Origin: an uncultured bacterium
Lineage (GTDB): Bacteria; Patescibacteriota; Minisyncoccia; UBA6257; GWB1-50-10
Reading direction: 5' to 3'
Assembly: GCA_963768835.1 (NCBI GenBank)
Contig: CAVYJB010000002.1
Coordinates: 459,082 to 523,081, forward strand
DNA length: 64,000 nucleotides
The notes beneath the pieces are model-generated. The model had not been told where the DNA came from. It did no database searches and saw nothing but the letters and a program-made list of their open reading frames with translations. Every line of letters begins with the position of its first letter. Position 1 is the first letter of the stretch. Made by a program: the position numbers and the translations under genes. Below are positions 12,062 to 63,456 of the stretch, piece after piece.

Positions 12062-12469
12062 ATGGACGACAAAGCGAAACAGAATGAGGATGTTTGGCAG
12101 AAGATGCTCACGCCGGAGCAATACAATGTGTGCCGGCTCGGCGGGACCGAGCCTCCAGGGAGTGGGAAATACACCTACACAAAGGAGAATGGGATGTATA
12201 TCTGTGTAGCCTGCGGACAGCCACTTTTCTCCTCGGAGACGAAATTCGATTCCAGCACGGGGTGGCCGAGCTTCTATGATGTCGTGGAGAGGGGGAATGT
12301 AGAACTCAGAGAGGACGCGAGCTACGGCATGCGTCGTACTGAAGTGCGCTGTCGGAACTGCGGCTCGCATCTCGGCCATGTTTTCGATGATGGCCCGGCC
12401 CCGACTGGGAAACGCTATTGTATCAATTCCGTTGCCTTGGATTTTAAAAAGAAAGATGGGAAGGCGTAG
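12062..12469 (+). CDS. msrB: peptide-methionine (R)-S-oxide reductase
   Basis: The SelR fold shows two zinc CxxC pairs (CVACGQPLF ... [16 protein letters not shown]) and the catalytic RYCINS motif. Confidence 0.9.
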
Positions 12470-12704
12470 GGGATTCACCGCTACACCTTTCCTTTCTTGG
12501 CTTTTCCTATGACTATAGCTGGGCAGTGAAGAAGCGACACCTAAAAGGGAACAGAGCTTTCTCGAGAGTGATGACGGCGGAGTCGCGAACTCCGCGGTTT
12601 TCTTTCCAGAAGCTCATAGAGTCCTCCACCAGCGCGTTGACGCTCGCGTCCATGGGTGCTATTTTTCTATCAGTTCATCGAACACACTCACGGAAGGAGA
12701 TGGT

Positions 12705-35300: not shown

Positions 35301-38300
35301 ATCACCTACAACACCAATAGTAACATCACTTACGGTACCGTCATCGCCACGAGCACCAACGACCCGACGAACGGCGGCGATACCGTCATCCCAGAGACCT
35401 ACAACGATCAGAATCCATTCTCCGTCGCTTCAGCCATCGGTTTGGGTCAGGACGGTGAGTGGGATTTCTCGCTCGTAAGCAGTAGCTCTATGCCCACGAG
35501 CACCGCTTTTTGCTTCCGAGCGGTCAATACCAGCGGCCAGCTCCTTACGACTACGACCGCTACGCAGATCCCTGAGATCGATACCCCGAATATATCAGCG
35601 GGAAGTACGATCAGTGGCTACCTTTACTCGGACGAGGGGGTGACCCTCACGACCTCCACGGTGAAGATTGCGGTGAACGGGTCCACACAATTTTCCTCGA
35701 CGACGATCGCGAGCTGGTACAACCCCTCCTGGCTATATCGGAAGCTCATCACTATCACGGGTTCCTTGGTCTCGGGCACGCAGACGGGCTTCCCGGTGCT
35801 TGTGAACACCACGGATCCGAACTGGGCCTACACCGGTAATGGCGGGCACATGGGTTCCTCGACGGGATATGACGCGCTCTTTACCGCTGCGGACGGCGTG
35901 ACGAAGCTGAACCATGAGGTGGAGTCCTACAATGCCACGTCGGGCCAGCTCGTCGCGTGGGTGCAGATACCCCAACTCACGGCGAGCACCACCTTCTATA
36001 TCTACTACGGCAACGCGGGGGCCAGCAACCAGCAGAACGCGACCTCCACCTGGGATGTAAACTATGCGGGCGTCTGGCACATGAATGAGGTCGGAGCGGC
36101 GACCACGACCGTGCCCGATTCAACAGGAAACAGAAACACAGGGACAAAGCTTTCCGCGTCCCAACCTTTCGCAACCTCCGGTCCCATTGCGGGCGCCCTC
36201 GCGTTTGACGGAAGCGCGGCGAAGATCACCACACCGTTCACGGCGACAACAACGAGCTTTACGCTTTCGGGATGGGTCTACTCAACGAGTACCGCGACCA
36301 CCGGAACGGTCAATAACGCGATGGCAGGATCGGTAAACAGCTCACGAGGTTTCGCGTTCTGGCCGGAGTGGGGCAACCCGGCGCCGCCGCAACAAGATAA
36401 CCTCATTGTCTACGGCAGTTCCGGGACCGTATCTCTGCAGACCTCCGACAACTTCAACCGGGGCGGCTGGTTCTATTTTGTGGCAACATATGCGAGCCCC
36501 AATGCCACGGTATACAAGAATGGAGCGTTCCTGAACTCGCAGAGTGTCGCTGTCGGTACCACTACAAACGTAGGATTCGACATCGGGGATCGTGGGGATG
36601 GTGCCCATTTCTGGCCCGGTGACATCGCCGAGGTACGACTCTCGACTATCGCACGCTCGGCGGCCTGGATCCTCACCGAGTACAACAACCAGTCTGCGCC
36701 GGGCGTGTTCTACACAGTGGGTCCCGAGCTGGCTTCAGGTGAATACTCATTTACTCTAGGTTCCTCCCTGAACACTGGCGATGTCATCACGGTCTGGATG
36801 GGGAACGGCATCTCGGCGCGCACGGGCGCGACTGTTACCCGCTGGTCAAACTCCCTCTCCACGCTTTCAGGCCTCAACATCTACCAACAGCACCTTATCG
36901 CGCGCCACGAGGACACAGGACCCCTCACCGACGCGAATATTCTCCTCTGCTCGAAGACTGCGGGGAGCGCCTGCTCGGACCCCGACCTCCACTTTGCGGC
37001 AGGCACGAACCCCAGTGACCTCACGGTGGACCCCGACTGGGGCCTCTATCTCTGGGGGGGGAAAACCTTCTCGCCGAACGGGACAGTCACGCTTTCTGCG
37101 GGCACCACCTCTTCGACCTACGGCGGCACTTTGAAGTGGGGGTCCTCGTCCACGATGCTCGCGGCGAGCACCTCCACGCTCTCCATTGGGGGGAGCTGGC
37201 TGAATGCTGTGGATGGGCTATTCTTCTCGTCCTCAGGTCAGGTCACCTTTTTTACAGGGAGTTCCTCACCAGTCTACAGCGTGGATAGCACTGGCAATAG
37301 TTTCCAGAATATCGTGTTTGGGTCTTCGACGCCCGCGACCAGCACTGCCTGGTACAGCGCCTCCTGGCTCCACCGTAAACTTATCAATATAACCGGTTCC
37401 CTCGTATCCGGCACACAAACAAACTTCCCGGTCCTTGTCTCGACCGTCGATCCGAACTTGGCTTACACCGGGAACGGCGGCCACGTGGGGACCTCCACAG
37501 GGAACGATATCCTTTTCACCGCCGCGGACGGCGTGACGAAGCTGAACCACGAGATCGAATCCTACACTTCCTCGACTGGGGCGCTTGTGGCCTGGGTTCA
37601 GGTGCCACAGCTTACCTCGACTACAAGTCTCTATATTTATTACGGCAACGCGGGGGCCAGCAACCAGCAAAACGCGACCTCCACCTGGGACCCCACTTTC
37701 TTGGGGGTTTGGCACTTAGGGGATTCTGCAAGCTCTGCCACCTCGATCGACTCCACCGGGAATGGGTATAGTGCAAAGAAGCAGGCGGTGAACAATCCGG
37801 CCGCGATTTCGACTGGCACTATTGATGGAGCTTCCTCCTTCAATGGCTCAACATCCTTCGCCTCCACATCCAAGCCGCTGAATTTGAATTCCACCACCAC
37901 AATCAGCGCTTGGGTTAAGCGCTACACAACTGGGGCCATCCAGCTCTACTTCACGAAGACAGATGCGCATGCTGGCAACTCCGACTACGCCGTCGGCTTC
38001 GAGGGCCCAGGGGCCAATGTCGACAAGTTCCAGTTTTGGGACAGCAATCTCAATCCCGGAACTCTCTATGCAGCACGTACGATTACCGATACCAATTGGC
38101 ACCAGCTTGTAGTAGTCACTGACTTCCATTGGTATGCAAGTTTCTATGTTGATGGCGCATTCGTGAACACAGGGACATACGATGGGAATAATAGCCAAAC
38201 CATCCATTCTTATCCCACTCACATCGGAGACGCGTTCGGGAACGCTCCTGATCTTTATTGGATGAATGGCGCGGTCGACGAACTTCGCGTCGCTTCCTCC

Positions 38301-41300
38301 CCCCGCTCGGCGGCCTGGATTCTCACCGAGTTTAACAATGAGTCCTCACCAGGCACCTTCTTAACGGTGAAGCCGGAGGATAGCTACCCGGGCGGTGTTT
38401 GGAACATCACGAGTGATTTAAATGCGAGCGGGAATCTTGCGGTTGTGACCGGGACGGTGGTGGGCTCCGCGAACGTCCTCATCGCGGGTGGGAACGCTAC
38501 GAGCAGCGGCGGCACGCTTAGCTTCGCAGGCGGTACCTTCACGCTTGCGCACCCCGGTTTCTACGGTGGTCTCCAGCCGTGGAGTCTCTACAACTTCATA
38601 GCTAGCTCCGGGGCCTCCGGCATCACCACAACCACTGGCACGGGCACCACAACGGTTACGGGCGCCTTCACTATCTGGCCGGGCTCCGGGTTCAACGCCG
38701 CGACCTCCACCTTTGTCCTTACAGCGATCTCCGGGGCGCCTTTCGTTCCCCAGGGCACCTTCCTGCCCGCCACCTCGACGGTCCTCTTCACGGGTGACGG
38801 CAACATTACAATCGCCTCCACGACCTACTATAATCTCACCCTCAGCCCAACCTTGACGGCAAGCCGAGCTTATAGTTTGGGAGGGCCGGGCATTATTCAG
38901 TTCATCCAAGCCACCTCGACGGTCACAACTACCACGGCGGCCTCTGTCACTTTCCCTTCGCCGGTAGGGGCAGGCGACACCATTATCGGCAGCATGATCG
39001 AGCCATCCGGTAGTACGGTCCAAGTCGGTGACACGCGGGGGAATTCCTACACCATTGCCGTTGGATCCTTCCCCGATCCCTTGGGCGACCTGATCTATAT
39101 GTTCTATGCCCCGAATGTGGCGGGCGGGCCAACCACGGTTATTGCCACGAGCTCTCTTGCCTCCCCGGCCTTCAATGAGCTCAACATTACCGAGTATAGC
39201 GGCCTCAATACCGTGAGCTCGTTGGACGCCATCTCCACTGGCACCAGCGTCGGCGGTGGTGTGAACCCCACAACTGCCACCACGACCATCACCTCTGCGA
39301 AGGAGCTCATCTGGGCCTACGGCCCGGATCTCGGTAGCGGCCTCAGTGCGGGGGCGAGTTTCACACCTCGGCTCGTCACGCAGGGCGATACCGTCGAAGA
39401 CAAAATCGTGTCCACTGCGGGATCCTACAGCGCCTACATGATTGCCACCACTACGAGCAACTGGGCCATCGTGATGGGGACTTTTAAGACGGGCCCAGGA
39501 TCCGGTATCCCTGGTGCGACAACAATCAACAACAATTTCCTTATCAACCCCACCTCCTCGAGTGCTCTGAACCTCGATGTAACTCTTGCCTCCACAACCA
39601 CCGTTCTTGGTGGGACGACCGTAATGAGTGGCGGTTCCTCCACTTCCACCCTCGACACGACGCCCTCAAACTCTTCCCTCACGACCGGGAATCTTACAAT
39701 CCAGGCGGGGGACGGTATGAATGCGAACGGTTCAAACGTGACCTTGACCGGCATCAACTCTCCTCTCGTTAATAACGGCCTCCTTTCCGTCGGCACCTCC
39801 ACCTTCATATACACCGGCGCCGGGGCCACGGTTGTTAACGCAAGCACCACGTACTGGAACCTTACGCTCCAGCCCGTATCCTCAGGCGCCGCTTTCGGGT
39901 ACCAGATGGCAACAGGCACCCCACTCACAGTTTCAAGCACGCTGAATGTGAACGGGTCAGGCGATGAAGGCGCAAACTGGACCCAGGCGACCTCGAGCGC
40001 CGCGTGGGCCGGGCGGAAATCCGAACCCGCCCTCGTCTATCACGGAAAGCTCTGGCTCCTCGGGGGGCAGCTATCGGGGCCTGTGGCGACCTCGAGCGTC
40101 TGGTCCTCCTCGGACGGTGTGAACTGGACCTTTATGGGTTACGCGCCTTGGACTGCGCGCTACTCGGCGGCGGGGCTTGTGTATAAGGACAAGATGTGGA
40201 TCATGGGCGGTACAGACCAATCCGCGGCGCGGAAGAATGATGTCTGGTGGTCCACCGACGGCGTGAACTGGACCCAGGCCACCTCGTCCGCGACCTGGGC
40301 GGCGCGTGAAGCCCCCCGCGCCGTCGTGTTCAAGGGCTACATGTGGATTGTGGGGGGGTACATCGGCTCTGTCACCCATGATGTCTACTATTCGTCGAGC
40401 GGCATCGCATGGGCTACAGCGACGTCGAGCGCGAACTGGTCTATCCGCTACTACAACGCGTTGGTCGTCAAGGACGGGAAGATGTGGGTGTACGGAGGGT
40501 ACGGAGGCGTTGATGACTGTGCGAGCGGTTCCCGCAACGATGTCTGGTGGTCCTCCGACGGCGTGAACTGGACCCAGGCGACTGCAAGCGCTCCCTGGGC
40601 CTGCCGATGGCAGCTTTCCTACGGTGTCTACGACAACAAGCTGTGGGTGGTGGGAGGGTACGATAGCTCGGCCGGCTATAGGACTGATGCTTGGTACTCG
40701 CCGGACGGAGTGAACTGGACAATGGCCACGAGTGGGACTGCAACGAAAACAAATGACACGCCGCTTTTAGCTTTCCAGAACCGCCTCTGGAGAATCGGCG
40801 GCGAAAATGGATCGTATTTGAACAATGTCTGGTACACACCTTCCTCGACCCTCACTGTCACGCTCGGAGCTACCACGACCGTTGCCTCGACGACGAACGT
40901 AAATGCGGGCATCCTCGATGCAACTTCCTTAAACTACCCGCTGACGACCATGAATCTCGCAGTCGGGCCCGGTGGCACCCTCACTGGTCGCGGCTCAGCG
41001 CTCCTCGCGACGGGGGATGTCAGTATCAATGGGTACGGTCGTGACAACGGTGGCATCCTCCAATCTACGACCAACACCCTCACTATCCAGGGCAACTACA
41101 CCCAAACTGGCACCTTCGCAAGCGGCACGACAGGAACCGTTCTCTTCAACGGAAGCGCTCAGCAGGTTCTAGCGGGGGAGATGACGGGCGGGAACGCGTT
41201 CGGCCTCCTCACCTTCGCGAACAACTCCGGAGGCGATCCTTCTTCCACCCCCTCCCTCATCGTTTCCTCGTCGCTCGACGCCGCAACTTCCACCATCACG

Positions 41301-42644
41301 ACTGCGAACGTGAAGGTCCGCTGGACCGCGGGTGCGACAACCACCATCTTCAACGGCGTGAACTGGAACGGACAGGCGAGCACGACGCGCATCGCGTTTC
41401 GAAGTTCGGTCTCGGGCACGCCTTGGGGCCTTATCGTGGAATCAACCTCCTCTGTTTTCAACGTGGACACGAAAGATTCGAATGCTTGCGGCCAAGCTAC
41501 CTCCTCTGCCCCGAACACAGCGAACAGCGCGACGACCATTACGGCGGGCAACGGCACGAGCCTGGACAGCGGGGGGAACTACTGCTGGAGCTTCGCCTCC
41601 TCCACGCAGACCCAATCCATCACGCTCACCCTAGACACCAATACTTTAAATCTCCCGAGCCTGACGCCGGGGGCTCCGGTCAAGGCGACCACGACCGCGA
41701 CCGTTAGTATCACAAACACAGGTGGGAGCGGGTACACCCTCTTTTTCAATCGGATCGCCACGACCTCGACGCTCACAGCTTTGGGAAGTGGCGGCGCCTC
41801 CTCGTCGGGGCCCTTTAATACCGCGACCGTCGTGAACGATGTCACGACCGGCACGATTGCATGGACCAGTCCGGGGAATGCAACGACGAGCGATAACGTG
41901 GTGGCATCGTCCGGCGTCTTCGGCGTCGTGGAGTCGAACTATCTGAAAGCGACAAACTTCGGTTTCTCCATCCCCTCGACCGCCACGGTGACTGGCATCA
42001 AGGTAGAGGTGCGGCGGGAGGATTCGAACTTGAACGCCTATGATGCATCCGTTCGTATTGTGAAGGGCGGGACCATCCAGAACGCGGTTGACGAGGCGAG
42101 TTCGACCGTGTGGCCGGTGTCGATGGCTTACGCCACATACGGTTCCTCCACGGATCTTTGGGGTACCACGTGGGCGCCCTCCGACATCAACGCTTCGAAC
42201 TTCGGTTTCGTGTTGGCGTGCCGGGGGGTCAGCTTCGGGGACACCTGCTGGGTCGACCAGATCCGCATCACGGCTTATTACACGGTCCCCGGTTACACCG
42301 GTGTAGCCACCTTCCCCGACTACGCGGCCTGGGCACCGACCGGCACGACTTGTTCACCGGGAGAGGGGAATGGGACCACAACCCCCAACCGGGCCTTTTC
42401 CTTCCGCGTCCAACAATCCGGCACGAACTCCAATTACTGTACAAACTGGTGGGGAGCAAACGATACCCTAGGCACCGCCATCTACGCTGGTACTCCGACC
42501 TCAACCCAGACCATCATGAATTGTCCTACCTGCAATTCCGGTACCACCGTAACCTACATTCTCTATCAGGCGGACGCTCCGGCGACCCAACCGATCGCTA
42601 GTTATACGGGTCAGGTCACTATCACGGCGCTTGCGAACCCATAA
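29358..42644 (+). CDS. giant (4,428 aa) membrane-anchored multidomain surface protein
   Basis: Uninterrupted 13.3-kb ORF. The N-terminal TM (AIPIFILAAALAIVGTY) is followed by a P/S/T-rich linker.
The Gly-rich domain WTAPTNIYGTTTMEAWGAGGGGGGVNTSNEGGGGGGGGAY resembles PF12810.
Seven tandem ..IALNAASGTMYVAGYD...EWRIEARNLSDGSLIYAT.. units resemble SBBP beta-propeller repeats.
Two DUF2341-like modules (WLYRKLITITGSLVSGTQTGFPVLV...YIYYGNAGASNQQNATSTWD) are each followed by a LamG-like domain.
Six Kelch-like W..DGVNWT repeats follow.
The C-terminal domain ends ...YTGQVTITALANP*, the motif shared with the downstream small proteins. Confidence 0.85.
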   Translation: MTVPKPKTPRTRKPRVPKNPTVQPTPISDVLEGGRRTIYLRERFPRLVQLSRQRFAIPIFILAAALAIVGTYQALFVHADLTTLYPSSCLGGWRYPGNATGKPDIPLDIVPDLNQFTTANSAISDGGESPLFCGSFTGDTLDPAATITHVRLRFSLAAFFGLDAVKRGAAAAAAPAGNAPGDVPLLILDTRPSSTEPSALPEEGSSTPTEESFSTSSTGSTASPQVPSASSGQADSTDTSPTATDTPPTPSAPPVLPPPSDASGTLPSAALRTLAELFFPHAAAQEASASTPSTNPPQADSTSSPEADSIPSIDSGQANPPQAASAPNDETSTSPVLVSPPLPSVPSSTPPTSSTSSGEAPSGSAPPLELSASSTNATGTQNSELVPTSTSSSSPEESPAPSPEPPAPAPADTTSTAFLVVSYTLDGQTWQPLGYVTPDNWQQANFDVPVTSTDDISKLQVSVESVLTADQPPVVYLDGMALEVSYGPPPAPKSLTPEDINKLSRVQVDANKLFRAARHDFRAGETPSFEIDIPSSTDALLSSPSSSVSTSTLDAPGEETVPGASTTPSEGDIPSSSPASGFLDSLRKLAGIPDAAAQTSSSSIQRVEVLDIFNNPVDVQPQVVQNGNQIVINFPAPPRAFRPGRYQLDVEVLVGDTVYASEQDFTWGILALNLDRSIFTPGQTAYLQMAALSDEGDTLCNANLSLSITDPGGTVTHVPVQPGASCGPNNVTDVPDYTAHYSVGNTTGVYTITLENQDTGHTITDTFQVQNSVPFDVERIGATRINPFMSDYRMRFRVTANQGFDGTVQEQLPQGFAVIDPGGGDVAAGDAATILGWEVHLAAGQSIELSYVYRAPRVSPQFYLLGPAQFIHQAGVLDKIVGFLFSNLTGSQPPVVFQEARQWQLAADASNPATIRQEINILDHTFTAGTVATSSMEIVNLNPTQYATGTNTFYFEIVASTTGVVATATLQEAGGLIDATTTIPATATSSTLIRTAFTPNAATTNYIVGLQGLSSGSAYLQAARIVVKEAATNFTNTETQIEIGNYETGKTNTATSSLSKPKYWLYTSSSWDGTKTFYAEVTYQTSASVTTSSIASSSLYTAAGNFTWTAPTNIYGTTTMEAWGAGGGGGGVNTSNEGGGGGGGGAYARVNSSTTPAGTPLAVTVGAAGGAGASSGGTGGVGSTSTIATSTVVAQGGNGGVGNDGAGGTGTTTQSVGDVKFAGGTGSAGASASYSGGGGGGAGSTGAGGSVTATTTAGLGTTVGGGNGGAGRLSSSAGVGNNGNQAGGGGSGGYRGSSTNRAGGSGGPGEAKLTYSLLVTTTTFATTTVSLQEDNGAFGGWTDKLIILAAGVNTTSTRVRAGPFTPTDGRHYRLAFTNATTTRAFNIYNAKIIVDQAGNPTMLEPQYLLANTALGTGTSLQGFQTKWDSTEWSNVSNVYLHEVEATSSATSTIELDTTGGSQVAGSSIANPSNLATSTLTMPASQNFDVKATANYGGIYADRILVDVSSILPVFEQTAYRWYQNANIANLLFGVGGATSSNPSAGDDEANGIALNAASGTMYVAGYDNASGTEWRIEARNLSNGSLIYATNSIPTLNSPEANAIAINAASGTMYVVGSANPVLGNLQWRIEARNLSDGSLIYATTSNLAVGTNIATAIALNAASGTMYVAGYDNSLGGGDLEWRIEARNLSDGSLIYATTSNPTVNTNEATAIALNAASGTMYVAGYDSPSVSEWRIEARNLSNGSLIYATTTAPTAGGDQATSIALNTASGTMYVAGSENSTGKWRIEARNLSDGSLVYRQSLSLTTSDKAKTIALNTALGTMYVAGYDNFAADTEWHIEARNLSDGSQVYGTSSNPTAGLDEANGIALNAASGKMYVAGYDSGGGTEWRIEARNLSDGTLLSTITSLVPGTPLAAQNTSTTLGTVTASSTFRLRLLLKDSVATSTNSKFNLQVASTTVGNCPGNYTGLTYTNVPTSTGYITYNTNSNITYGTVIATSTNDPTNGGDTVIPETYNDQNPFSVASAIGLGQDGEWDFSLVSSSSMPTSTAFCFRAVNTSGQLLTTTTATQIPEIDTPNISAGSTISGYLYSDEGVTLTTSTVKIAVNGSTQFSSTTIASWYNPSWLYRKLITITGSLVSGTQTGFPVLVNTTDPNWAYTGNGGHMGSSTGYDALFTAADGVTKLNHEVESYNATSGQLVAWVQIPQLTASTTFYIYYGNAGASNQQNATSTWDVNYAGVWHMNEVGAATTTVPDSTGNRNTGTKLSASQPFATSGPIAGALAFDGSAAKITTPFTATTTSFTLSGWVYSTSTATTGTVNNAMAGSVNSSRGFAFWPEWGNPAPPQQDNLIVYGSSGTVSLQTSDNFNRGGWFYFVATYASPNATVYKNGAFLNSQSVAVGTTTNVGFDIGDRGDGAHFWPGDIAEVRLSTIARSAAWILTEYNNQSAPGVFYTVGPELASGEYSFTLGSSLNTGDVITVWMGNGISARTGATVTRWSNSLSTLSGLNIYQQHLIARHEDTGPLTDANILLCSKTAGSACSDPDLHFAAGTNPSDLTVDPDWGLYLWGGKTFSPNGTVTLSAGTTSSTYGGTLKWGSSSTMLAASTSTLSIGGSWLNAVDGLFFSSSGQVTFFTGSSSPVYSVDSTGNSFQNIVFGSSTPATSTAWYSASWLHRKLINITGSLVSGTQTNFPVLVSTVDPNLAYTGNGGHVGTSTGNDILFTAADGVTKLNHEIESYTSSTGALVAWVQVPQLTSTTSLYIYYGNAGASNQQNATSTWDPTFLGVWHLGDSASSATSIDSTGNGYSAKKQAVNNPAAISTGTIDGASSFNGSTSFASTSKPLNLNSTTTISAWVKRYTTGAIQLYFTKTDAHAGNSDYAVGFEGPGANVDKFQFWDSNLNPGTLYAARTITDTNWHQLVVVTDFHWYASFYVDGAFVNTGTYDGNNSQTIHSYPTHIGDAFGNAPDLYWMNGAVDELRVASSPRSAAWILTEFNNESSPGTFLTVKPEDSYPGGVWNITSDLNASGNLAVVTGTVVGSANVLIAGGNATSSGGTLSFAGGTFTLAHPGFYGGLQPWSLYNFIASSGASGITTTTGTGTTTVTGAFTIWPGSGFNAATSTFVLTAISGAPFVPQGTFLPATSTVLFTGDGNITIASTTYYNLTLSPTLTASRAYSLGGPGIIQFIQATSTVTTTTAASVTFPSPVGAGDTIIGSMIEPSGSTVQVGDTRGNSYTIAVGSFPDPLGDLIYMFYAPNVAGGPTTVIATSSLASPAFNELNITEYSGLNTVSSLDAISTGTSVGGGVNPTTATTTITSAKELIWAYGPDLGSGLSAGASFTPRLVTQGDTVEDKIVSTAGSYSAYMIATTTSNWAIVMGTFKTGPGSGIPGATTINNNFLINPTSSSALNLDVTLASTTTVLGGTTVMSGGSSTSTLDTTPSNSSLTTGNLTIQAGDGMNANGSNVTLTGINSPLVNNGLLSVGTSTFIYTGAGATVVNASTTYWNLTLQPVSSGAAFGYQMATGTPLTVSSTLNVNGSGDEGANWTQATSSAAWAGRKSEPALVYHGKLWLLGGQLSGPVATSSVWSSSDGVNWTFMGYAPWTARYSAAGLVYKDKMWIMGGTDQSAARKNDVWWSTDGVNWTQATSSATWAAREAPRAVVFKGYMWIVGGYIGSVTHDVYYSSSGIAWATATSSANWSIRYYNALVVKDGKMWVYGGYGGVDDCASGSRNDVWWSSDGVNWTQATASAPWACRWQLSYGVYDNKLWVVGGYDSSAGYRTDAWYSPDGVNWTMATSGTATKTNDTPLLAFQNRLWRIGGENGSYLNNVWYTPSSTLTVTLGATTTVASTTNVNAGILDATSLNYPLTTMNLAVGPGGTLTGRGSALLATGDVSINGYGRDNGGILQSTTNTLTIQGNYTQTGTFASGTTGTVLFNGSAQQVLAGEMTGGNAFGLLTFANNSGGDPSSTPSLIVSSSLDAATSTITTANVKVRWTAGATTTIFNGVNWNGQASTTRIAFRSSVSGTPWGLIVESTSSVFNVDTKDSNACGQATSSAPNTANSATTITAGNGTSLDSGGNYCWSFASSTQTQSITLTLDTNTLNLPSLTPGAPVKATTTATVSITNTGGSGYTLFFNRIATTSTLTALGSGGASSSGPFNTATVVNDVTTGTIAWTSPGNATTSDNVVASSGVFGVVESNYLKATNFGFSIPSTATVTGIKVEVRREDSNLNAYDASVRIVKGGTIQNAVDEASSTVWPVSMAYATYGSSTDLWGTTWAPSDINASNFGFVLACRGVSFGDTCWVDQIRITAYYTVPGYTGVATFPDYAAWAPTGTTCSPGEGNGTTTPNRAFSFRVQQSGTNSNYCTNWWGANDTLGTAIYAGTPTSTQTIMNCPTCNSGTTVTYILYQADAPATQPIASYTGQVTITALANP
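33960..35100 (+). repeat. seven tandem ~156-165-nt coding repeats (beta-propeller SBBP-like) within the giant gene
   Basis: TGGCGCATCGAAGCCCGCAACCT recurs near 34077, 34239, 34404, 34560, 34713, 34868 and 35024. Confidence 0.75.
35710..38380 (+). repeat. internal duplication of a ~1.0-kb DUF2341+LamG-like module (copies at ~35710-36730 and ~37350-38380)
   Basis: WYNPSWLYRKLITITGSLVSGTQTGFPVLVNTTDPNWAYTGNGGHMG...ARSAAWILTEYNN aligns with WYSASWLHRKLINITGSLVSGTQTNFPVLVSTVDPNLAYTGNGGHVG...PRSAAWILTEFNN. Confidence 0.75.
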
Positions 42645-52527: not shown

Positions 52528-52550
52528 TTCCGAGGCGCTTTCCTTATTTG

Positions 52551-52621
52551 TCGGGCCGCCGGGAATCGAACCCGGTCTACATGCACCCCATGCATGCGTA
52601 CTACCGGTATACGACGGCCCG
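52551..52621 (-). tRNA. tRNA-Pro (anticodon GGG)
   Basis: Reverse complement CGGGCCG-TC-GTAT-ACCGGTA-GTAC-G-CATGC-AUGGGGU-GCATG-TAGA-CCGGG-TTCGATT-CCCGG-CGGCCCG-A. Features are a C1:G72 pair and A73 (Pro identity elements), the GG D-loop, U33-GGG-G37 and a canonical T-loop. CCA is not encoded. Confidence 0.8.
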
Positions 52622-54750: not shown

Positions 54751-55164
54751 ATGCCTACAGTGCATCAACTGATCAAGCGCGGGCGCTCGAGCGCGGTCTC
54801 CAAGGCCAAGGCGCCGGCTTTGCGTTCCTATTTCAATTATCTCAAGAACCGACCGGTGGATTCACCATCGCCGTTCAAGCGCGGTGTCTGCCTCAAGGTA
54901 TTCACCACCACGCCGAAAAAGCCGAACTCTGCACTTCGGAAAGTCGCACGTGTGCGTCTCACGAACGGTATGGAGGTCACGGCCTATATTCCCGGTGAAG
55001 GACACTCGCTTCAGGAGCACTCTGTGGTGGTCGTGCGCGGTGGCCGCGTGAAGGATCTTCCCGGCGTGCGCTATCACATCATTCGCGGTGTTCTCGACAC
55101 CACGGGCGTGGAGGCGCGGCATCAGCAGCGATCGAAGTACGGCGCAAAGCGCCCTAAGAAATAG
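54751..55164 (+). CDS. rpsL: 30S ribosomal protein S12
   Basis: [12 protein letters not shown]...[59 protein letters not shown]. Confidence 0.95.
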
Positions 55165-55165
55165 C

Positions 55166-55636
55166 ATGCGTAAGCGCGGGTATTACAAGCGGCGGGAACA
55201 CGCGGTGGATCCAGTCCATGGCCGCGTTGACGCGGCGCGGTTCATCAACTACCTCATGGTGGGTGGTCGGAAAACCGCCGCGGAGAAAAATTTCTATGGA
55301 GCTCTGAAGATCGTAGAGACGACCGCGAAAGAGGACCCGGTGAAGGTGTTTGAACGGGCACTCCAGAACGCGACGCCGCTCCTTGAGGTGATGTCACGGC
55401 GCGTCGGCGGCGCAAACTACCAGATCCCGCGCGAGGTGCGCCCCGAGCGGAAGTTTTTCCTTGCGTGTCACTGGCTTATCGCGGCAGCGCGCGCCAAGAA
55501 AGGAAAGCCCATGGCGGCCAAGCTTGCGGAAGAAATCCTCGCGGCCTCCAAGGGCGAGGGGTCGGCGATCAAGAAAAAGCAGGATATGCATCGGATGGCG
55601 GAGGCGAACCGAGCGTTCGCGTCCCTGATCCGCTAA
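55166..55636 (+). CDS. rpsG: 30S ribosomal protein S7
   Basis: MRKRGYYKRREHAVDPVHGRVDAARFINYLMVGGRKTAAEKNFYGAL...GGANYQIPREVRPERKFFLACHWLI. Confidence 0.95.
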   Translation: MRKRGYYKRREHAVDPVHGRVDAARFINYLMVGGRKTAAEKNFYGALKIVETTAKEDPVKVFERALQNATPLLEVMSRRVGGANYQIPREVRPERKFFLACHWLIAAARAKKGKPMAAKLAEEILAASKGEGSAIKKKQDMHRMAEANRAFASLIR

Positions 55637-55702
55637 CGCACGGAGCGAGCCCTGAAACCAAACCCGGCTCGCCAAAGCGAGCCGGTTTCCATACTACAAC
55701 GT

Positions 55703-57813
55703 ATGCCCAGACAGTATCCCATCGAGAAAGTCCGCGACATCGGTATTATCGCACACATCGACGCGGGCAAGACCACGGTTTCCGAGCGGGTGCTTTTCTA
55801 CACCGGCGTTTCGCACAAGATCGGAGAGGTGCACACGGGTGACACCGTGATGGACTGGATGGAGCAGGAGCGGGAGCGCGGCATCACGATTACCTCGGCT
55901 GCCACAACCTGTTTCTGGATACCCACCTATCGCAAAGGGGACAAGAAGTACGAGCACCGCATCAACCTCATCGACACCCCGGGCCACATCGATTTCACCG
56001 TCGAGGTGAAACGATCTCTCCGTGTCCTGGACGGCGCCGTCGTCGTTTTTGACGGCGTGGCGGGCGTGGAACCTCAATCGGAGACGAACTGGCGATACGC
56101 CGACGAGTATGTCGTCCCGCGCATGTGTTTCGTGAACAAGCTCGACCGGATGGGCGCGGACTTTTACGCGGACATGCAGAGCATCCATGAGCGGCTCACC
56201 CCGAACGCGGTGGCGCTCCAGCTCCCCGTGGGTATCGAGGACAATTTCTCAGGCATCATCGACCTCCTCACGATGAAGATGTACACGTCCGAGGGGGACA
56301 AGGGGGAACGGCTCATCGAGAAAGAAGTGCCCGCGGAGATGAAAGTGAAAGCGGATGAGTATCGCCATATCCTCGTCGAGAAGATTGCGGAGACCGACGA
56401 CATCCTCATCCAGAGATATTTAGATAACAAGGAAATTTCGGTCGAGGAGCTCAAGGCTGCGCTTCGCAAAGCGACACTCGCGGTGAAACTCATCCCGGTG
56501 CTCTGCGGATCGGCGCTCAAGAATAAGGGTGTCCAGCTTATGTTGGATGCCGTGGTGGACTACCTGCCATCGCCGAACGACATGCCGGCCACGAAAGGTA
56601 TCGACCCCGCGACCGGCGCCGAAGTGGAGCGTCACCCGAAGGATGACGAGCCTTTCGCCGCGCTGGCCTTCAAGATCGCGGCCGATCCCTTTGTGGGGTC
56701 GCTAACGTACTTCCGCGTATATTCGGGAACGCTGAAGCGCGGAAGCTATATTATGAATGCGACGAAGGGGGACCAGGAACGCATCGGGCGCATCGTGCTG
56801 ATGCACGCAAACCATCGCGAGGAAGCGGAGGAAGTCCACGCGGGCGATCTCGGAGCGCTCGTAGGCCTCAAAAATACCACGACGGGGGATTCGCTCGTGG
56901 ATCCGGAACATCCCATGGTGCTCGAGACCATCACGTTCCCGGAGCCCGTGATTTTCATCCGCATCGAGCCGAAAACCAAGGTAGACCAGGAGAAGATGGG
57001 GGTGGCCCTGCGACGCCTCGCGGAAGAGGACCCCACCTTCCGCGTGAAGGGAGACGAGGCGACCGGGGAGACCATCATCGGTGGAATGGGTGAGCTCCAC
57101 CTCGAGATCATTGTCGACCGAATGAAGCGCGAGTTCTCAGTCGAGGCAAATGTCGGCCGCCCGCAGGTGGCGTATAAGGAGACCGTGAAGGGGAAAGCGG
57201 AAGCGGAAGGAAAATATATTCGACAATCCGGTGGCCGCGGGCAGTATGGGCATGTCTGGCTTCGGGTCCAACCGATGGAGCGAGGGAAGGGTTTCGAGTT
57301 CTTGGACGAGATCAAGGGTGGTGTTATCCCGCAAGAGTTCATTGCTCCGACCGAGAAGGGCGTGCGCGAGGCGCTTGATAAGGGCGTGCTCGCGCCGGCT
57401 ATCCGTTGACCGACATCGAGGTGACGCTCTTCGATGGTTCCTTCCACGAAGTGGACTCCTCGGAGTTCGCGTTCAAGATCGCGGCTTCGATGGCCGTGCA
57501 GGAGGCGACGAAGCGTGCGAAGCTCGTGCTCTTGGAGCCCGTGATGAAAGTGCAGGTCATTACCCCACCCGATTTCCTGGGTGATGTGACGGGAGATCTC
57601 TCGTCCCGCCGCGCCAAGATCACGTCGATGGGGGAGCGCGGCTCCGCGCGTATCGTGGACGCCGAAGTGCCGCTCGCGGAGATGTTCGGCTATGTTACCA
57701 ACCTTCGCTCGATGTCCCAGGGTCGTGGCAGCTTCACGATGGAATTTTTGAAGTACGACGAGGTCCCGGCGAGTGTCGCGCAGGTCATCATCGAGGGGAA
57801 AGCGAAGAAGTAA
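55703..57813 (+). CDS. fusA: elongation factor G, split by an apparent 1-nt deletion near 57395
   Basis: GTPase G1-G5 motifs ([18 protein letters not shown]). Frame A stops after ...KGVLAPAIR* at 57409, and frame B continues ...[33 protein letters not shown], which is EF-G domain IV/V. A single-base deletion in GCGGCC explains the split. Confidence 0.85.
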
Positions 57814-58006
57814 CCCTACCTGTTCCAAGGATTTCGAGTTAGAACTTATATACTTATCCACACCTTGGTCGGGAACTTGACATTTCAAGGGGTTTCCGCA
57901 AGAATGAGCTTGCACACTTTGGACCCGTGTGAGGACGGGTTCGAAGAATTCTCGAAATTTTATTAGGTCGAAACCAAAAACAAATTTAAATAGAAACAAT
58001 ACACTA

Positions 58007-59212
58007 TGGCAGAAAAAGAAAAATTCGCAGCGGTCGAAGCCGCACGTGAACGTCGGCACCATCGGTCACGTCGACCACGGCAAGACGACCTTGACCGCGG
58101 CGATCACGCACGTGTTGCACATGAAGGGTCTCGCAAAGAAAGGAGGAAGGCGTGAACGAGATCGACAACGCTCCGGAAGAGAAGGCGCGCGGTATCACTA
58201 TCGCGCTGCACCACTCGGAATATGAGTCGGAGAAGCGCCACTACGCGCACATCGACGCTCCGGGACACGCGGACTACATCAAGAACATGATCACGGGCGC
58301 CGCCCAGATGGACGGCGCGATCCTCGTGGTCGCCGCGACGGACGGCCCGATGCCGCAGACGCGCGAGCACATCCTTCTGGCCACCAGGTAGGCGTGCCGA
58401 AGATCATCGTCTTCCTGAACAAGTGCGACATGGTGGACGATCCGGAACTCATCGATCTCGTGGAATCCGAGGTGCGCGAGCTTCTGAAGAAGTACCGGCT
58501 TCGACGGGCGACAACGACCCCGATCATCCGCGGTTCGGCACTCAAGGCGCTTGAGCACGAAATCGCCGGATGACGCGGCCGCGAAGCCGATCCTGGACCT
58601 CGTGAAGGCGCTGGACGACTATATTCCGGACCCGGTCCGCGAAATGGACAAGCCGTTCCTTATGCCGATCGAAGACATCTTCTCGATTGAAGGCCGCGGC
58701 ACGGTCGTGACCGGGCCGCATTGAGCGCGGCAACGTCAAGGTGAACGAGGAAGTGGAGATCGTCGGTCTCCGCCCGACGCCGAAGACGGTCGTGACGGGC
58801 ATCGAGATGTTCAACAAGATCTTGGACGAGGGCCGGCCGGCGACAACGTCGGTGTGCTGCTCCGCGGCTTCAAGAAAGAGGACGTGGAGCGCGGGCAGGT
58901 CATCGCGAAGCCGGGTTCGCGTCACGCCGCACACCGAATTCGAGGCCGAAGTGTACGTGCTCTCGAAGGAGGAAGGCGGACGCCACACGCCGTTCTTCAA
59001 GGGCTACAAGCCGCAGTTCTACATCCGCACGACTGACGTGACCGGCGAGGTCACGCTGCCCGCAGGGCACGGAAATGGTCATGCCGGGCGACACCGTGAC
59101 GATCACCGTCAAGCTCATCGCTCCGGTGGCGCTCGAAGAGAAACAGCGCTTCGCCATCCGCGAAGGCGGCAAGACCGTCGGCGCCGGCGCCGTGACGAAG
59201 ATCATCAAATAA
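58007..59212 (+). pseudogene. tuf: elongation factor Tu with multiple (>=5) apparent frameshifts
   Basis: EF-Tu segments appear in all three frames. [27 protein letters not shown] is out of frame with the ATG, followed by [76 protein letters not shown] and then [24 protein letters not shown]... . Stops at 58391 and 58566 interrupt the frames. Confidence 0.8.
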
Positions 59213-59258
59213 CGGAAAGCCATCCGGCTTATACGGCCACCCGCACCTTACCAACCAC

Positions 59259-59596
59259 ATGGCAAAGAAAGAAGAACAGCGCACAAAGAAAGTCTGCGCC
59301 TGCAGGGTCAAGTCCTACGATCGCGAAGCTCATCGACAATTCGGTGCGCCAGATCATCGAAGCCATCGGAGCGCCAAGGCGGCGAAGGTCATCGGACCGA
59401 TGCCGCTTCCGACGGAGTTCAAGAAGTACACCGTGAACCGTTCGACCTTCGTGCACAAGAAATCGCGCGAACAGTTCGAGACTGCGCGTGCACAAGCGCC
59501 TGATGGACATCCTGAACCCGCACCAGAAGATAATTGAATCCCTCGAGGGATCTGAACCTTCCGGCGGGGGTGGATGTGGAGATAAAGATGAGCTAA
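59259..59596 (+). pseudogene. rpsJ: 30S ribosomal protein S10 with multiple apparent frameshifts
   Basis: S10 segments are spread over three frames: MAKKEEQR...RVKSYD, then [14 protein letters not shown], then [33 protein letters not shown], then [18 protein letters not shown], then DLNLPAGVDVEIKMS*. Confidence 0.75.
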
Positions 59597-60316
59597 GGGA
59601 AGGATTGGTATCGCTCATGAAGAACCGCCCTCATTCAAAGAATGGGGGCGTCGCTTTTGCAATAGCATAGAGCATGGAGGAGTTCGTGGAGCGGGTGATA
59701 ACCACCTTCCGACCGAAGTGGCGCGAGCAGTGAATACATCGCTGTCCGGAAAGGATAATCGCCATATGGGTGACCACTTTTTCAGAGAGACTCGCCCTGC
59801 GTTTCAGGTAAAGAACATATCCAGACGGGTGAGCTTTCGAGCTCTTCTGCCGTCACGTTTGATGCCAGGGGAGGCAATGTCAGGCGTACCGCTCGGTATA
59901 CTGCACGGACGAACGCCGTGCAATCAAAATCGGCTGAATAAGACCTTCCAAGATACAGGAGGGCTTCTCTTTCAACCCTTTCAGCCGTTTCCTTGGTAAA
60001 GGACATAGGCATTTCTCCTTATGGCGTGCGGATTTGGAGGGACTCGGGACTATGATATGGCATTGAAAAGCATTGTCAATCTGAGTCGAGCAGGGAGTTG
60101 ACGAAATTCGCGGCTCCTATAGGATACGTGAGGTTTAGCCAGTGTGGTTCGGTAGTAGAACTCCAGGCTTGACTTGGTGTTCTCTGTCCCTCACCCCTTG
60201 GAAACTTTCCCCCAGCGATGCTGGACCAGGAACAGCCCAACGGGTCGAGCATAGCGAATCGTGGAGTTGGGAAGCTGCGTGCTACCCCAAGTGGTTCTAT
60301 CTACGTTATACGAAGC

Positions 60317-60754
60317 ATGGAGAAAGTTACGCTCAAAAAACTGAAAATGACGCAGGTCTGGAAAGACGACGCCGTCGTCCCCGTAACCGTCCTCACTCTT
60401 TCTAAGGAAGGCGATGTCGCATCCCTCGGTGTCTTCAAGGTAGGCGATCTTGTAAAGGTTACCGGTACCTCGAAGGGGAAAGGATTCCAAGGCGTCGTGA
60501 AACGGCACGGCTTCCACGGTGGTCCTCGGAGTCACGGTCAAAAGGACCGCCTCCGCTCGCCCGGTTCCATTGGTCCTACGGCGCCGCAGCGCGTGCTGCC
60601 GGGCCGCAAGATGGCGGGACACATGGGGGCGGCGCGGGTTACCGTAAAAAATCTTTTAGTGGCAGACGTGAAACCGGAAGAGCGGACACTCCTCGTACGG
60701 GGCGCGGTGCCAGGCGCGCGCGGAAGTGCAGTTATCGTGCGAAAGGATTCTTAA
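60317..60754 (+). CDS. rplC: 50S ribosomal protein L3 (unusually short, ~146 aa)
   Basis: [26 protein letters not shown] ... [27 protein letters not shown] ... GRKMAGHMG ... [19 protein letters not shown]. About 50-60 residues between the PVTV and [10 protein letters not shown] motifs are missing relative to typical bacterial L3. The ORF-track start at 60218 is probably an upstream extension. Confidence 0.75.
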
Positions 60755-60762
60755 CTATTACC

Positions 60763-61386
60763 ATGGATGCTGAGCTTTTGAATCGCGAGAACAAGAAGGT
60801 AGGAACGGTGAGCGTCCCGGACGCCGTTTTTGCGCGAAAGTGGAACGCCGATCTGGTCCATCAAGTGGTGACGGCAGAGCGTGCCAACGCGCGGAATCCC
60901 ATTGCACACACAAAGGATCGGAGTGAGGTGCGTGGCGGTGGTAAGAAGCCGTGGGCGCAGAAACACGCCGGGAAAGCCCGTCATGGATCGACCCGTTCGC
61001 CCCTTTGGGCGGGTGGAGGTGTTACCTTCGGGCCGCGCAAAGACCGCGATTTCACTCAGAAAATCAACAAGAAGATGCGGCGGGCAGCTCTTTACTCGCT
61101 ACTTTCGCGGAAGCTCAAGGACGGCGAAGTGAAGTTTCTTGAGGATCTGAAGCTCCCAGAGCGGAAGACCAAGCAGGTCGCTCTCATGCTCAAGGGATTT
61201 TTCAAAACACCGCAGAGCGTTCTCATTGTCCCTGCCAAAGGGAATATCGATATTTTTCATGCAGGCCGGAACATTCCGCGCATCGCCATCACCGCAGCGC
61301 CGTCGCTTGGCGTCTACGAATGCTCAACCCACCGCTATCTCATGATCGAGAAGGCCGCCATTCTGGAGCTCACTCCGTCAAAATAA
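60763..61386 (+). CDS. rplD: 50S ribosomal protein L4
   Basis: VRGGGKKPWAQKHAGKARHGSTRSPLWAGGGVTFGPR is the L4 signature. Confidence 0.9.
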   Translation: MDAELLNRENKKVGTVSVPDAVFARKWNADLVHQVVTAERANARNPIAHTKDRSEVRGGGKKPWAQKHAGKARHGSTRSPLWAGGGVTFGPRKDRDFTQKINKKMRRAALYSLLSRKLKDGEVKFLEDLKLPERKTKQVALMLKGFFKTPQSVLIVPAKGNIDIFHAGRNIPRIAITAAPSLGVYECSTHRYLMIEKAAILELTPSK

Positions 61387-61390
61387 CCCT

Positions 61391-61762
61391 ATGAGCCTTT
61401 TAAAGAAAAAAGCGAAGCCCGAGCCGGCGGAAACCGCCGTTCCGACGGAGGTCCCAACGGAGAACAAGCCGACGGTCCTTTCCGGCAGCGTTTTCCAGAG
61501 CGTCATTCGTCGCCCGCATGTGAGCGAAAAGACCGCGCGCACGGAGGTGAACCGGCAGTACGCCTTTGAGGTGCATCCGGACGCCAACAAATCCGTGGTG
61601 CGGGAAGAGGTGGAGCATCTCTATCGCGTGACTGTGGAACGGGTGAACATCGTGCGTCTCAAGGGCAAGCCTAAGCGATGGGGTTCCCACGCCGGTTCCC
61701 AGTCCCCGCGGAAGAAAGCCATTGTTACCCTGAAAGCAGGACAGAAGATCGATACTATCTAA
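61391..61762 (+). CDS. rplW: 50S ribosomal protein L23
   Basis: VIRRPHVSEKTARTEVNRQYAFEVHPDANKSVVREEVEHLYRVTVERVNIV. Confidence 0.9.
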   Translation: MSLLKKKAKPEPAETAVPTEVPTENKPTVLSGSVFQSVIRRPHVSEKTARTEVNRQYAFEVHPDANKSVVREEVEHLYRVTVERVNIVRLKGKPKRWGSHAGSQSPRKKAIVTLKAGQKIDTI

Positions 61763-61764
61763 TC

Positions 61765-62592
61765 ATGAAACAGTTCGGACCCTACACCGCTTCGCGCCGG
61801 AATTACTCCACTGTTGACTACGGTGGCCTCACGCGTTCCAAGCCGCACAAAGCTCTTACGCGGAACCTTCCTTCACACGCAGGCCGGAACCATTCCGGGC
61901 GCATCACCGTGCGGCACCAGGGCGGGGGCAACAAGAGGACCTACCGCGACGTGGATTTCAAGCAGAACAAGATCGGCGTCATGGGACGTGTGGAGAGCAT
62001 CGAATACGATCCCTATCGCACGGCGTTCATCGCTCTCGTGGTGTATCGGGACGGCGACCGTCGCTACATCTTGGCGCCCCAGGGGCTTCAAGTAGGCGCC
62101 TCCATTATCACGTCCGAGGACGCACCGTTCGAAGTCGGGAATCGCACGAAGATGGAACGCATCCCGGCGGGCACTTTTGTATACAATGTGGAGCTTGCGC
62201 CCGGACGCGGTGGCCAGCTTGCGCGTTCCGCGGGATCTTCGGCGCAGGTCCTCGCGAACGAGGACGGCTACACGCACCTTCGGATGTCCTCCGGCGAGGT
62301 TCGTAAGGTTCTCTGGACCTGTCTCGCTTCTATTGGGCAAGTTTCAAATCCCGAACACAACCTCACGGTGATTGGTAAAGCGGGGCGCTCCCGGTGGCTC
62401 GGTGTTCGGCCCACCGTCCGCGGTACCGCGATGAACCCCCGCGACCATCCCTATGGAGGCGGTGAAGGCCGCCAGCCGCGCGGTACGCGTCGGCCCAAGA
62501 CCAAGTGGGGGAAGATCACCGGTGGTCGCAGGACGCGGAACAAGAAGAAGTGGTCGTCGAAGCTCATCCTCGAGCGACGGAAGAAGAAATAA
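61765..62592 (+). CDS. rplB: 50S ribosomal protein L2
   Basis: MKQFGPYTASRRNYSTVDYGG...GRNHSGRITVRHQGGGNKRTYR...GTAMNPRDHPYGGGEGR. The ORF-track start at 61678 overlaps rplW. Confidence 0.95.
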   Translation: MKQFGPYTASRRNYSTVDYGGLTRSKPHKALTRNLPSHAGRNHSGRITVRHQGGGNKRTYRDVDFKQNKIGVMGRVESIEYDPYRTAFIALVVYRDGDRRYILAPQGLQVGASIITSEDAPFEVGNRTKMERIPAGTFVYNVELAPGRGGQLARSAGSSAQVLANEDGYTHLRMSSGEVRKVLWTCLASIGQVSNPEHNLTVIGKAGRSRWLGVRPTVRGTAMNPRDHPYGGGEGRQPRGTRRPKTKWGKITGGRRTRNKKKWSSKLILERRKKK

Positions 62593-62598
62593 TCTATT

Positions 62599-62913
62599 AT
62601 GTCTCGATCATCCAAGAAGGGCCCGTGGGTCGACCCGCGGCTCCTCAAGAAAATCAATGGCGTGAAGCCCGATGGGAAGACCGTCATCAAGACCTGGTCG
62701 CGTTCCTCCGAAATCTCTCCGGAGATGGTCGGACACGTGTTCGGTGTCCACAACGGCAAGCAATTCATCGAAGTTCACGTGGGCGAGGATATGGTGGGGC
62801 ATCGTCTGGGGGAGTTCTCGCTGACCCGGAAGTTCGTGAAACACGGCGGCAAGATGCAGAAAGACCTTGAGCAGTCCGCCGCGCAGACGCCGGCCGTAGC
62901 CCCCAAGAAATAA
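62599..62913 (+). CDS. rpsS: 30S ribosomal protein S19
   Basis: [19 protein letters not shown]...[35 protein letters not shown]. Confidence 0.95.
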
Positions 62914-62916
62914 CCC

Positions 62917-63456
62917 ATGGCTACCACCGTCACCGTAAAACTTCGCTATCTCCACATTTCGACCCGCAAGGTTCGCTCGGTTGCAGACCTCATCCGGGGC
63001 CTTTCAGTGAACCACGCAGAGGCGCAGCTTTCGCTCTCGCCCCGGCGCGCGAGCGCGCCCATCCTGAAGCTCCTTCGAAGCGGGGTGGCGAGCGCGCAGG
63101 CGGTGTTGAAAGCCGAACCGAAGCAGCTGGTAATACGGGAGGTACGCGTGGATCAGGGGCCTCGCATGAAGCGATACACACCGCGGGCACGCGGGTCAAT
63201 GAGCAAGATTGAGCGAAAGACAAGCCACGTGACAATCGTTCTCGGCGTCGTGGAAGCGACACCGAAGCGGACCTTCACCTTCCGACCGAAACCCAAGAAA
63301 GAGAAGGAGAAAGAGTCGAAGTCGAAGCGGGCACCGAAAGCCGGTGAACCCCATGAGCACGACCACGAGCCGGCTGCGAAAGCGGCGCCCGCGGTGAAGC
63401 GCTCGCCCGCGAAGGAGGGCGGCTGGCGCCGGGTTTTCCGTCGCAAAGCCGTTTAG
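62917..63456 (+). CDS. rplV: 50S ribosomal protein L22 with a lysine/glutamate-rich C-terminal extension
   Basis: L22 core (LRYLHISTRKVRSVADLIRGLSVNHAEAQL ... RMKRYTPRARGSMSKIERKTSHVTIVL) plus a basic/acidic tail of about 60 aa. Confidence 0.9.
   Translation: MATTVTVKLRYLHISTRKVRSVADLIRGLSVNHAEAQLSLSPRRASAPILKLLRSGVASAQAVLKAEPKQLVIREVRVDQGPRMKRYTPRARGSMSKIERKTSHVTIVLGVVEATPKRTFTFRPKPKKEKEKESKSKRAPKAGEPHEHDHEPAAKAAPAVKRSPAKEGGWRRVFRRKAV

Follow-up and report, generated by a model that had tools for sequence, protein, structure and literature searches.

The stretch of DNA considered here is a 64,000-nucleotide (nt) window of contig CAVYJB010000002.1 (GenBank assembly GCA_963768835.1), from an uncultured member of the Patescibacteriota, and our subject is a run of frameshifts near its end, in the str/S10 ribosomal-protein operon region. 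The genes of this region lie on the + strand in the order rpsL-rpsG-fusA-tuf-rpsJ-rplC-rplD-rplW-rplB-rpsS-rplV, with a spacer between rpsJ and rplC that holds a small antisense gene related to the NlpC/P60 family (Table 1). A preliminary description, made from the sequence alone, had reported single-base frameshifts in fusA, tuf and rpsJ, which encode the elongation factors EF-G and EF-Tu and the ribosomal protein S10, and had attributed them to a local consensus or assembly error rather than to pseudogenes. Frameshift-tolerant protein-to-DNA alignment, with EF-G, EF-Tu and S10 from three relatives (L002, L006 and L168) as references, together with the ten best EF-Tu matches and the eight best S10 matches, gave events that were reproducible across references, and it places the cluster in these three genes where that description had put it. 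The counts then offered, one for fusA, at least five for tuf and at least four for rpsJ, were cautious; there are in fact 1, 11 and 7 events, a denser set than had been estimated.

Table 1. Features of the locus and of the independent Logan contigs, in window coordinates (aa, amino acids; ORF, open reading frame).
Feature	Position	Strand	Length	Description
rpsL, rpsG	54751..55636	+		intact left flank; rpsL 54751-55164, rpsG 55166-55636
fusA (EF-G)	55703..57813	+		split into ORFs of 568 aa and 135 aa; repaired product 702 aa
Tract of very probable low-accuracy consensus	57392..60114		2,723 nt	18 insertion and 5 deletion events (about 23 indels in all), as well as substitutions
tuf (EF-Tu)	58006..59212	+	1,207 nt (instead of 1,200)	11 single-base events; repaired product 399 aa
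rpsJ (S10)	59259..59596	+		6 single-base insertions and 1 deletion; repaired product about 109 aa
Small NlpC/P60-like gene	59631..60012	-		in the rpsJ-rplC spacer (720 nt); ORFs of 76 aa and 48 aa in the window
Portion of the tract comparable with Logan	59655..60114		460 nt	4 indels and 3 substitutions
Indels relative to L163				in the window: extra G at 59672; one G short of GGGG at 59692; extra G at 59824; A missing at 60114
Substitutions relative to L163				window/Logan: A/C at 59674; C/T at 59805; C/G at 60045
rplC, rplD, rplW, rplB, rpsS, rplV	60317..63456	+		intact right flank; rplC 60317-60754
Logan contig L162	20693-29752			100% identical
Logan contig L164	52583-55071			100% identical
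Logan contig L163	59655-60967			7 differences, all in 59672-60114; 60115-60967 (853 nt) identical
Logan contig L165	61004-62519			100% identical
Logan contig L161	62755-64000			100% identical

The single event in fusA falls at about 57392-57393, and its best fit is two extra bases (CTC GCG [CC] GGC TAT, read as ...KGVLAGYPLTD...), which keeps the length equal to that of all homologues. A 1-nt deletion, which had been suggested earlier near position 57395, would give an extra residue that is absent from every homologue, so that a 2-nt insertion at about 57392 is the more likely reading. With these two bases removed, EF-G is colinear with homologues of 701 and 702 aa (the EF-G of L168 is likewise 702 aa long), and the remaining 420 nt of the gene downstream of the event are clean. 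The Pfam domains EFG_IV and EFG_C are found on the C-terminal fragment, EFG_IV being divided exactly at the shift.

In tuf, whose start and stop codons are mutually out of frame, the EF-Tu peptide is scattered over all three frames. Nine of the events are insertions (near 58027-30, 58139, 58499, 58506, 58516, 58550-56, 58713, 58920 and 59059) and the remaining two, near 58380-83 and 58834-37, are deletions. At 58499-58516, three insertions together make +3, which leaves the frame unchanged and hides them when only ORFs are inspected, yet they garble the family motif KKY-x-FDGDN-TP. Once repaired, EF-Tu shares 90-92% identity with numerous intact EF-Tu proteins of Patescibacteria, likewise 399 aa long, and is covered end to end by its Pfam domains, PF00009 (GTP_EFTU, 217.7 bits), PF03144 (D2) and PF03143 (D3). 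Compared with 114 intact relatives, it deviates once at columns that are at least 97% conserved, where the leave-one-out values of the relatives themselves have a mean of 0.8 and a maximum of 5. Seven of its residues are unseen in the relatives, two of them at junctions where the residue depends on how the indel is placed, and these few odd residues roughly fit the substitution rate that we describe below for the part of the tract covered by a second assembly (3 in 460 nt).

The situation in rpsJ is similar, with a deletion near 59280 and insertions near 59303, 59322, 59366, 59381-87, 59481 and 59545. The repaired S10 matches the Ribosomal_S10 profile (PF00338) over positions 1-98 of 98 with 113 bits, whereas the longest rpsJ ORF present in the window matches only positions 5-61, with 40.9 bits. 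Within each frame segment of tuf and rpsJ, the EF-Tu or S10 peptide is still perfect.

These events are sharply bounded. Nineteen frameshifts were found in 1,967 coding nt of the tract against none in 5,691 nt of flanking genes (Fisher p = 6e-12), the latter comprising rpsL, rpsG, the first 1,689 nt of fusA, rplC, rplD, rplW, rplB, rpsS and rplV. In the flanking genes, the aligner made calls only at stop codons, an effect of forced global alignment, and the earlier statement that rpsL, rpsG, rplD, rplW, rplB, rpsS and rplV are intact thus stands. The left edge of the tract is the first frameshift at about 57392, preceded by the frameshift-free 1,689 nt of fusA, and the densest portion extends from 58027 to 59824, with one event per 110 nt in tuf and one per 48 nt in rpsJ. 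Over the 2.7 kb, we estimate about 0.8% indels and about 0.65% substitutions, or an overall error of around 1-1.5%. Both +1 and -1 events are present, and the contexts of the indel sites are heterogeneous (for instance, TTCGCAG, AAAGGAGG, GAGCACG, CCGGGCCG, TCGCGTC and CCCGCAG), none of them being a slippery run or a long homopolymer; insertions outside homopolymers include TTC[G]CAG near 58027 and TCG[C]GTC near 58920.

In relatives that share the gene order, all three genes are uninterrupted, with lengths of 701-702 aa for fusA, 398-399 aa for tuf and 109-110 aa for rpsJ, and a further intact reference with the same gene order is available from run ERR14788029 (P0045). Among the matches listed, the nearest relatives belong to uncultured Patescibacteria (Parcubacteria/Paceibacteria/Liptonbacteria kind), and their EF-G identity does not exceed 77%. 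The spacer between fusA and tuf measures 190 nt in the window and is AT-rich (57814-58005); in L006, a Liptonbacteria relative, a 132-aa membrane-protein-like ORF is located between the two genes (12130-12528 of that locus).

More direct evidence comes from an independent assembly. By exact look-up, the proteins of the window are found in the public protein collection on one NCBI/ENA contig. A few of them are also recorded under the source "Logan", and they lead to five contigs of run ERR11594402 that belong to the same organism; the literature gave no result for this run accession. Outside the tract, these contigs are identical to the window at every one of 15,164 nt, whereas one of them, L163, reaches 460 nt into the tract and differs from the window there at seven places (p = 2e-11 for the contrast). 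The last of these mismatches, at 60114, marks the right edge of the tract, and from there to the end of L163 the two sequences agree. The comparison with a second assembly that the preliminary description had proposed as a check therefore contradicts the window where the two overlap. Within the window, the Logan contigs begin or end at 20693, 29752, 55071, 59655, 60967/61004 and 62519/62755, and those of the ribosomal operon are short (1.3-2.5 kb), while L162 upstream and L161, which extends downstream past the window, have around 9-10 kb.

The overlap also tells which of the two versions is at fault, as it contains most of the antisense gene. In L163 (positions 1-351), this gene has an open frame of at least 117 aa that continues past the end of the contig, and its product matches the Pfam NLPC_P60 profile over positions 10-91 of 105 with 26.7 bits, which exceeds the curated cut-off. 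The match of the window version is limited to positions 10-39 and to 17.1 bits, below the cut-off. Since the domain is open in Logan and broken in the window, we take the window to be the erroneous version at 59655-60114. It follows that the errors extend to a non-conserved gene and its spacer, up to about 60114, and are not limited to fusA, tuf and rpsJ, as had been thought.

We thus assign a probability of about 95% to the tract being a local low-accuracy consensus within an otherwise base-perfect public contig, and not a cluster of pseudogenes or an instance of recoding; an error of this kind is what the preliminary description had favoured, and the Logan sequence, with its perfect agreement over 15.2 kb outside the tract, its seven differences within it and its restored ORF, points the same way. 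The four genes, that is, fusA, tuf, rpsJ and the antisense NlpC/P60-like gene, are almost certainly intact in the organism. For the first three, the indels can be rejected, as far as the sequence allows, on the grounds of homology, essentiality, the spectrum of the events and their continuity with the 460 nt that are directly contradicted. Consensus calling or polishing would have failed locally, leaving mostly single-base insertions along with some deletions and substitutions, and these would have split fusA, scattered tuf and rpsJ over three frames and broken the antisense gene.

Three observations weigh against this account. We found no independent sequence for 55071-59655, so that the indels in fusA, tuf and rpsJ are contradicted only indirectly, by homology, by the essentiality of the genes and by the 460 nt next to them. 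The protein collection also has no record of EF-Tu, S10 or EF-G from this organism in intact form. Finally, the tract takes in non-conserved spacer, yet rpsL and the highly conserved 5′ part of fusA are free of errors, and a purely conservation-driven cause fits this imperfectly.

Several searches were made for an intact copy or for a comparator from the same species. The window has no second tuf or rpsJ, and none of the 120 top-ranking EF-Tu or S10 matches lies on the contig of the window, their identities reaching at most 92% for EF-Tu and 85% for S10. A variable 128-aa segment of EF-Tu found nothing above 80% identity in the protein collection, and an exact look-up of the repaired 702-aa EF-G in the same collection gave no match, nor did exact look-ups of rpsL, rplD and the longer rpsG ORF for same-species comparators. 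When metagenome contigs were scanned with a variable EF-G segment, the best identity was 59%, with no locus of the same species, and no same-species locus spanning tuf was found in the genome or metagenome contig scans (the best EF-G identity being 77% among the matches listed). Each intact window protein that was looked up stands alone in its 90%-identity cluster, except for rplC, which shares a cluster with its own Logan version, and no second genome of this species is recorded.

As to how such a patch could have arisen, accurate reads were probably left unused for this stretch. A noisy long-read bridge or patch may have been placed where the accurate-read graph broke, as the Logan contigs are short here; alternatively, polishing windows could have been skipped or confounded, with tuf and rpsJ acting as repeats between the genomes of many related Patescibacteria, or there may have been a simple local shortage of usable coverage. 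The second of these candidates is favoured by the coincidence of the dense core with the two most conserved genes, while the first and third are favoured because the tract enters non-conserved spacer and leaves rpsL and the G domain of fusA clean. Neither of the causes put forward in the preliminary description has been established: homopolymer errors do not account for several sites that lack a run, and the collapse of conserved sequence alone does not account for the spacer. A model in which all errors are homopolymer errors was in fact ruled out, as several insertions lie at sites without a homopolymer, and a model based purely on homopolymer length is likewise disfavoured by the bias towards insertions combined with such sites.

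One specific form of the polishing explanation, and thus of the local consensus failure itself, is that reads from other species or strains were recruited onto the conserved tuf and rpsJ genes and corrupted the consensus or its polishing. We regard this as a tentative possibility, on balance somewhat doubtful. It would explain why the dense core matches the two most conserved genes, and hundreds of Patescibacteria EF-Tu proteins at 88-92% identity exist as possible sources; moreover, according to the Polypolish report (PMC8812927), errors remain in repeat-like regions after short-read polishing. Nevertheless, the tract continues for 520 nt into non-conserved spacer and the antisense gene and takes in the AT-rich spacer between fusA and tuf, whereas rpsL and the G domain of fusA are clean despite the same degree of conservation. 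The repaired EF-Tu, in addition, is not visibly mosaic and is no outlier.

A very different possibility is that the frameshifts are real and reflect an ongoing loss of fusA, tuf and rpsJ in this lineage, either with intact copies elsewhere or in a dying genome. The frameshifts do stand in the deposited contig, no intact copy of these genes has been recorded from this organism, and multiple frameshifts and premature stops in genes that are still recognisable are what pseudogenes look like in reductive or decaying bacterial genomes. However, tuf has acquired 11 indels with essentially no loss of conserved residues, while neutral decay would give far more substitutions than indels. Real decay is unlikely because drift prolonged enough to produce eleven indels would also have cost a gene many of its conserved residues, which is not the case for EF-Tu. 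The decay of bacterial pseudogenes is biased towards deletion, and the excess of insertions in the tract (18:5) is the opposite of this bias. Furthermore, the density of errors stays the same across gene boundaries and in the spacer, where the independent assembly contradicts them, and the targets, EF-Tu, EF-G and S10, are universally essential and single-copy, with no paralogue from the same contig among the best matches. For these reasons, gene loss seems to us very improbable.

It could also be argued that the Logan contig is wrong and that the window is right at 59655-60114. Coverage of this organism in Logan seems to have been modest, given its short, fragmentary contigs (1.3-9.7 kb). Still, it is in Logan that the NlpC/P60 domain is open across three of the differing sites and in the window that it is broken, Logan equals the window at all of the other 15,164 bases, and right next to the differences lies sequence whose essential genes are demonstrably frameshifted, so that an error on the side of Logan is just as improbable as gene loss. 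Less credible again is a combination in which the indels are truly present in the DNA of the population, EF-G, EF-Tu and S10 are still made through pervasive, motif-independent recoding or from an intact copy situated elsewhere, perhaps on a replicon that was not assembled, and Logan represents an intact haplotype that coexists with the frameshifted one.

The weakest proposal invokes programmed ribosomal frameshifting, transcriptional slippage or RNA editing as the means of restoring the frame. Nothing specific speaks for it beyond the perfect EF-Tu and S10 peptide in each frame segment, and both frameshifting and slippage are excluded for practical purposes, since around 19 sites in three genes share no common motif, +1 and -1 events both occur, the genes are uninterrupted in relatives with the same gene order, and similar differences are found in non-coding and antisense sequence and are absent from the independent assembly. 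In the known cases, such as the +1 shift of prfB, the -1 shift of dnaX and poly-A slippage in endosymbionts, a functional product likewise needs a change of frame, but each gene has a single site, marked by a conserved slippery motif that relatives share. By contrast, tuf and rpsJ would need 7-11 sites per gene, with no common motif and in both directions, that are absent in all relatives examined.

The closest parallel to a local consensus failure of this kind is found in the indel errors of long-read and hybrid assemblies. Residual errors of this type reportedly fragment genes (Watson and Warr, in 2019), and the likeness extends to the peptide spread over several frames, the normal product obtained after repair, the fragments that are emitted as proteins and the mis-scoring of completeness and marker sets. 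Such errors may also persist locally where accurate reads cannot be placed. What is unusual in the window is that the errors are limited to a single 2.7-kb tract, that they are biased towards insertions and that several lie off homopolymers. Tools are available for indel errors that fragment genes, for instance proovframe (10.1101/2021.08.23.457338) and Kastor (PMC12007338). Two raw long-read contigs of related bacteria (ERZ1286166 contig_5908 and ERZ25039515 contig_59171) have EF-Tu, EF-G, L4, S3 and other proteins in many pieces all along the locus and are generic unpolished long-read assemblies; as their frameshifts run throughout, unlike those of the window, they are uninformative about a cause specific to this locus. 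EF-Tu fragments of 120-224 aa are numerous in the protein collection, and the contigs that carry them reach 1.45 Mb.

The corruption of annotation that the preliminary description had predicted has indeed occurred, as the broken pieces have been deposited in the public protein collection, with EF-G present as fragments of 568 and 135 aa and EF-Tu as fragments of 79 and 59 aa. These fragments (P0123, P0250, P0251 and P0256, the first two being those of EF-G) are stored as separate proteins, and their only source is the NCBI/ENA contig (551,795 nt), not Logan. The 79-aa EF-Tu fragment clusters with entries annotated as partial EF-Tu or as "GTP-binding protein" that come from metagenome-assembled genomes of other organisms. 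A Patescibacteria contig of nearly genome length thus stands in public databases without a callable EF-Tu or S10 and without a full-length EF-G. As tuf, fusA and rpsJ count among the usual single-copy markers, this could distort completeness scores and marker trees, as well as claims that small genomes of the Candidate Phyla Radiation lack essential genes. More generally, a contig that is base-perfect over tens of kilobases may still conceal a patch of a few kilobases with 1% error, and it was the combination of frameshift-aware alignment to homologues and an independent assembly of the same run that exposed this one. There is no new biology in this result; its value lies in curation, as EF-Tu, S10 and EF-G of this organism are mis-annotated in public resources and need to be repaired from the reads.

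The spacer that holds the antisense NlpC/P60-like (C40 peptidase-like) gene between rpsJ and rplC varies among relatives. In L002, it measures 76 nt and has no cargo, in L006, it measures 740 nt and contains a 118-aa ORF, and in L168, it carries an antisense PgpA-like gene. Judging from these gene arrangements, the rpsJ-rplC junction looks like a recurrent insertion point in these Parcubacteria-like genomes. Rfam and ARAGORN scans detected no RNA gene in the tract or in the spacers, and a tRNA-Pro (GGG) at 52550-52621 on the - strand is the sole RNA gene that they found in the 64 kb.

Two other features of the window lie upstream of the ribosomal-protein genes. An uninterrupted giant ORF of 4,428 aa extends from 29358 to 42644 on the + strand, and the end of Logan contig L162, at 29752, falls a little way into the 5′ part of this ORF. 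Further upstream, at 24255-26180 (+), the annotation of L162 gives a 641-aa protein with Pfam matches to coupling proteins of the TrwB/TraG/VirD4 type (PF10412, with PF12696 weak and PF02534 faint), and this gene adjoins one of the Sua5/YciO/YrdC family and a gene for alanyl-tRNA synthetase.

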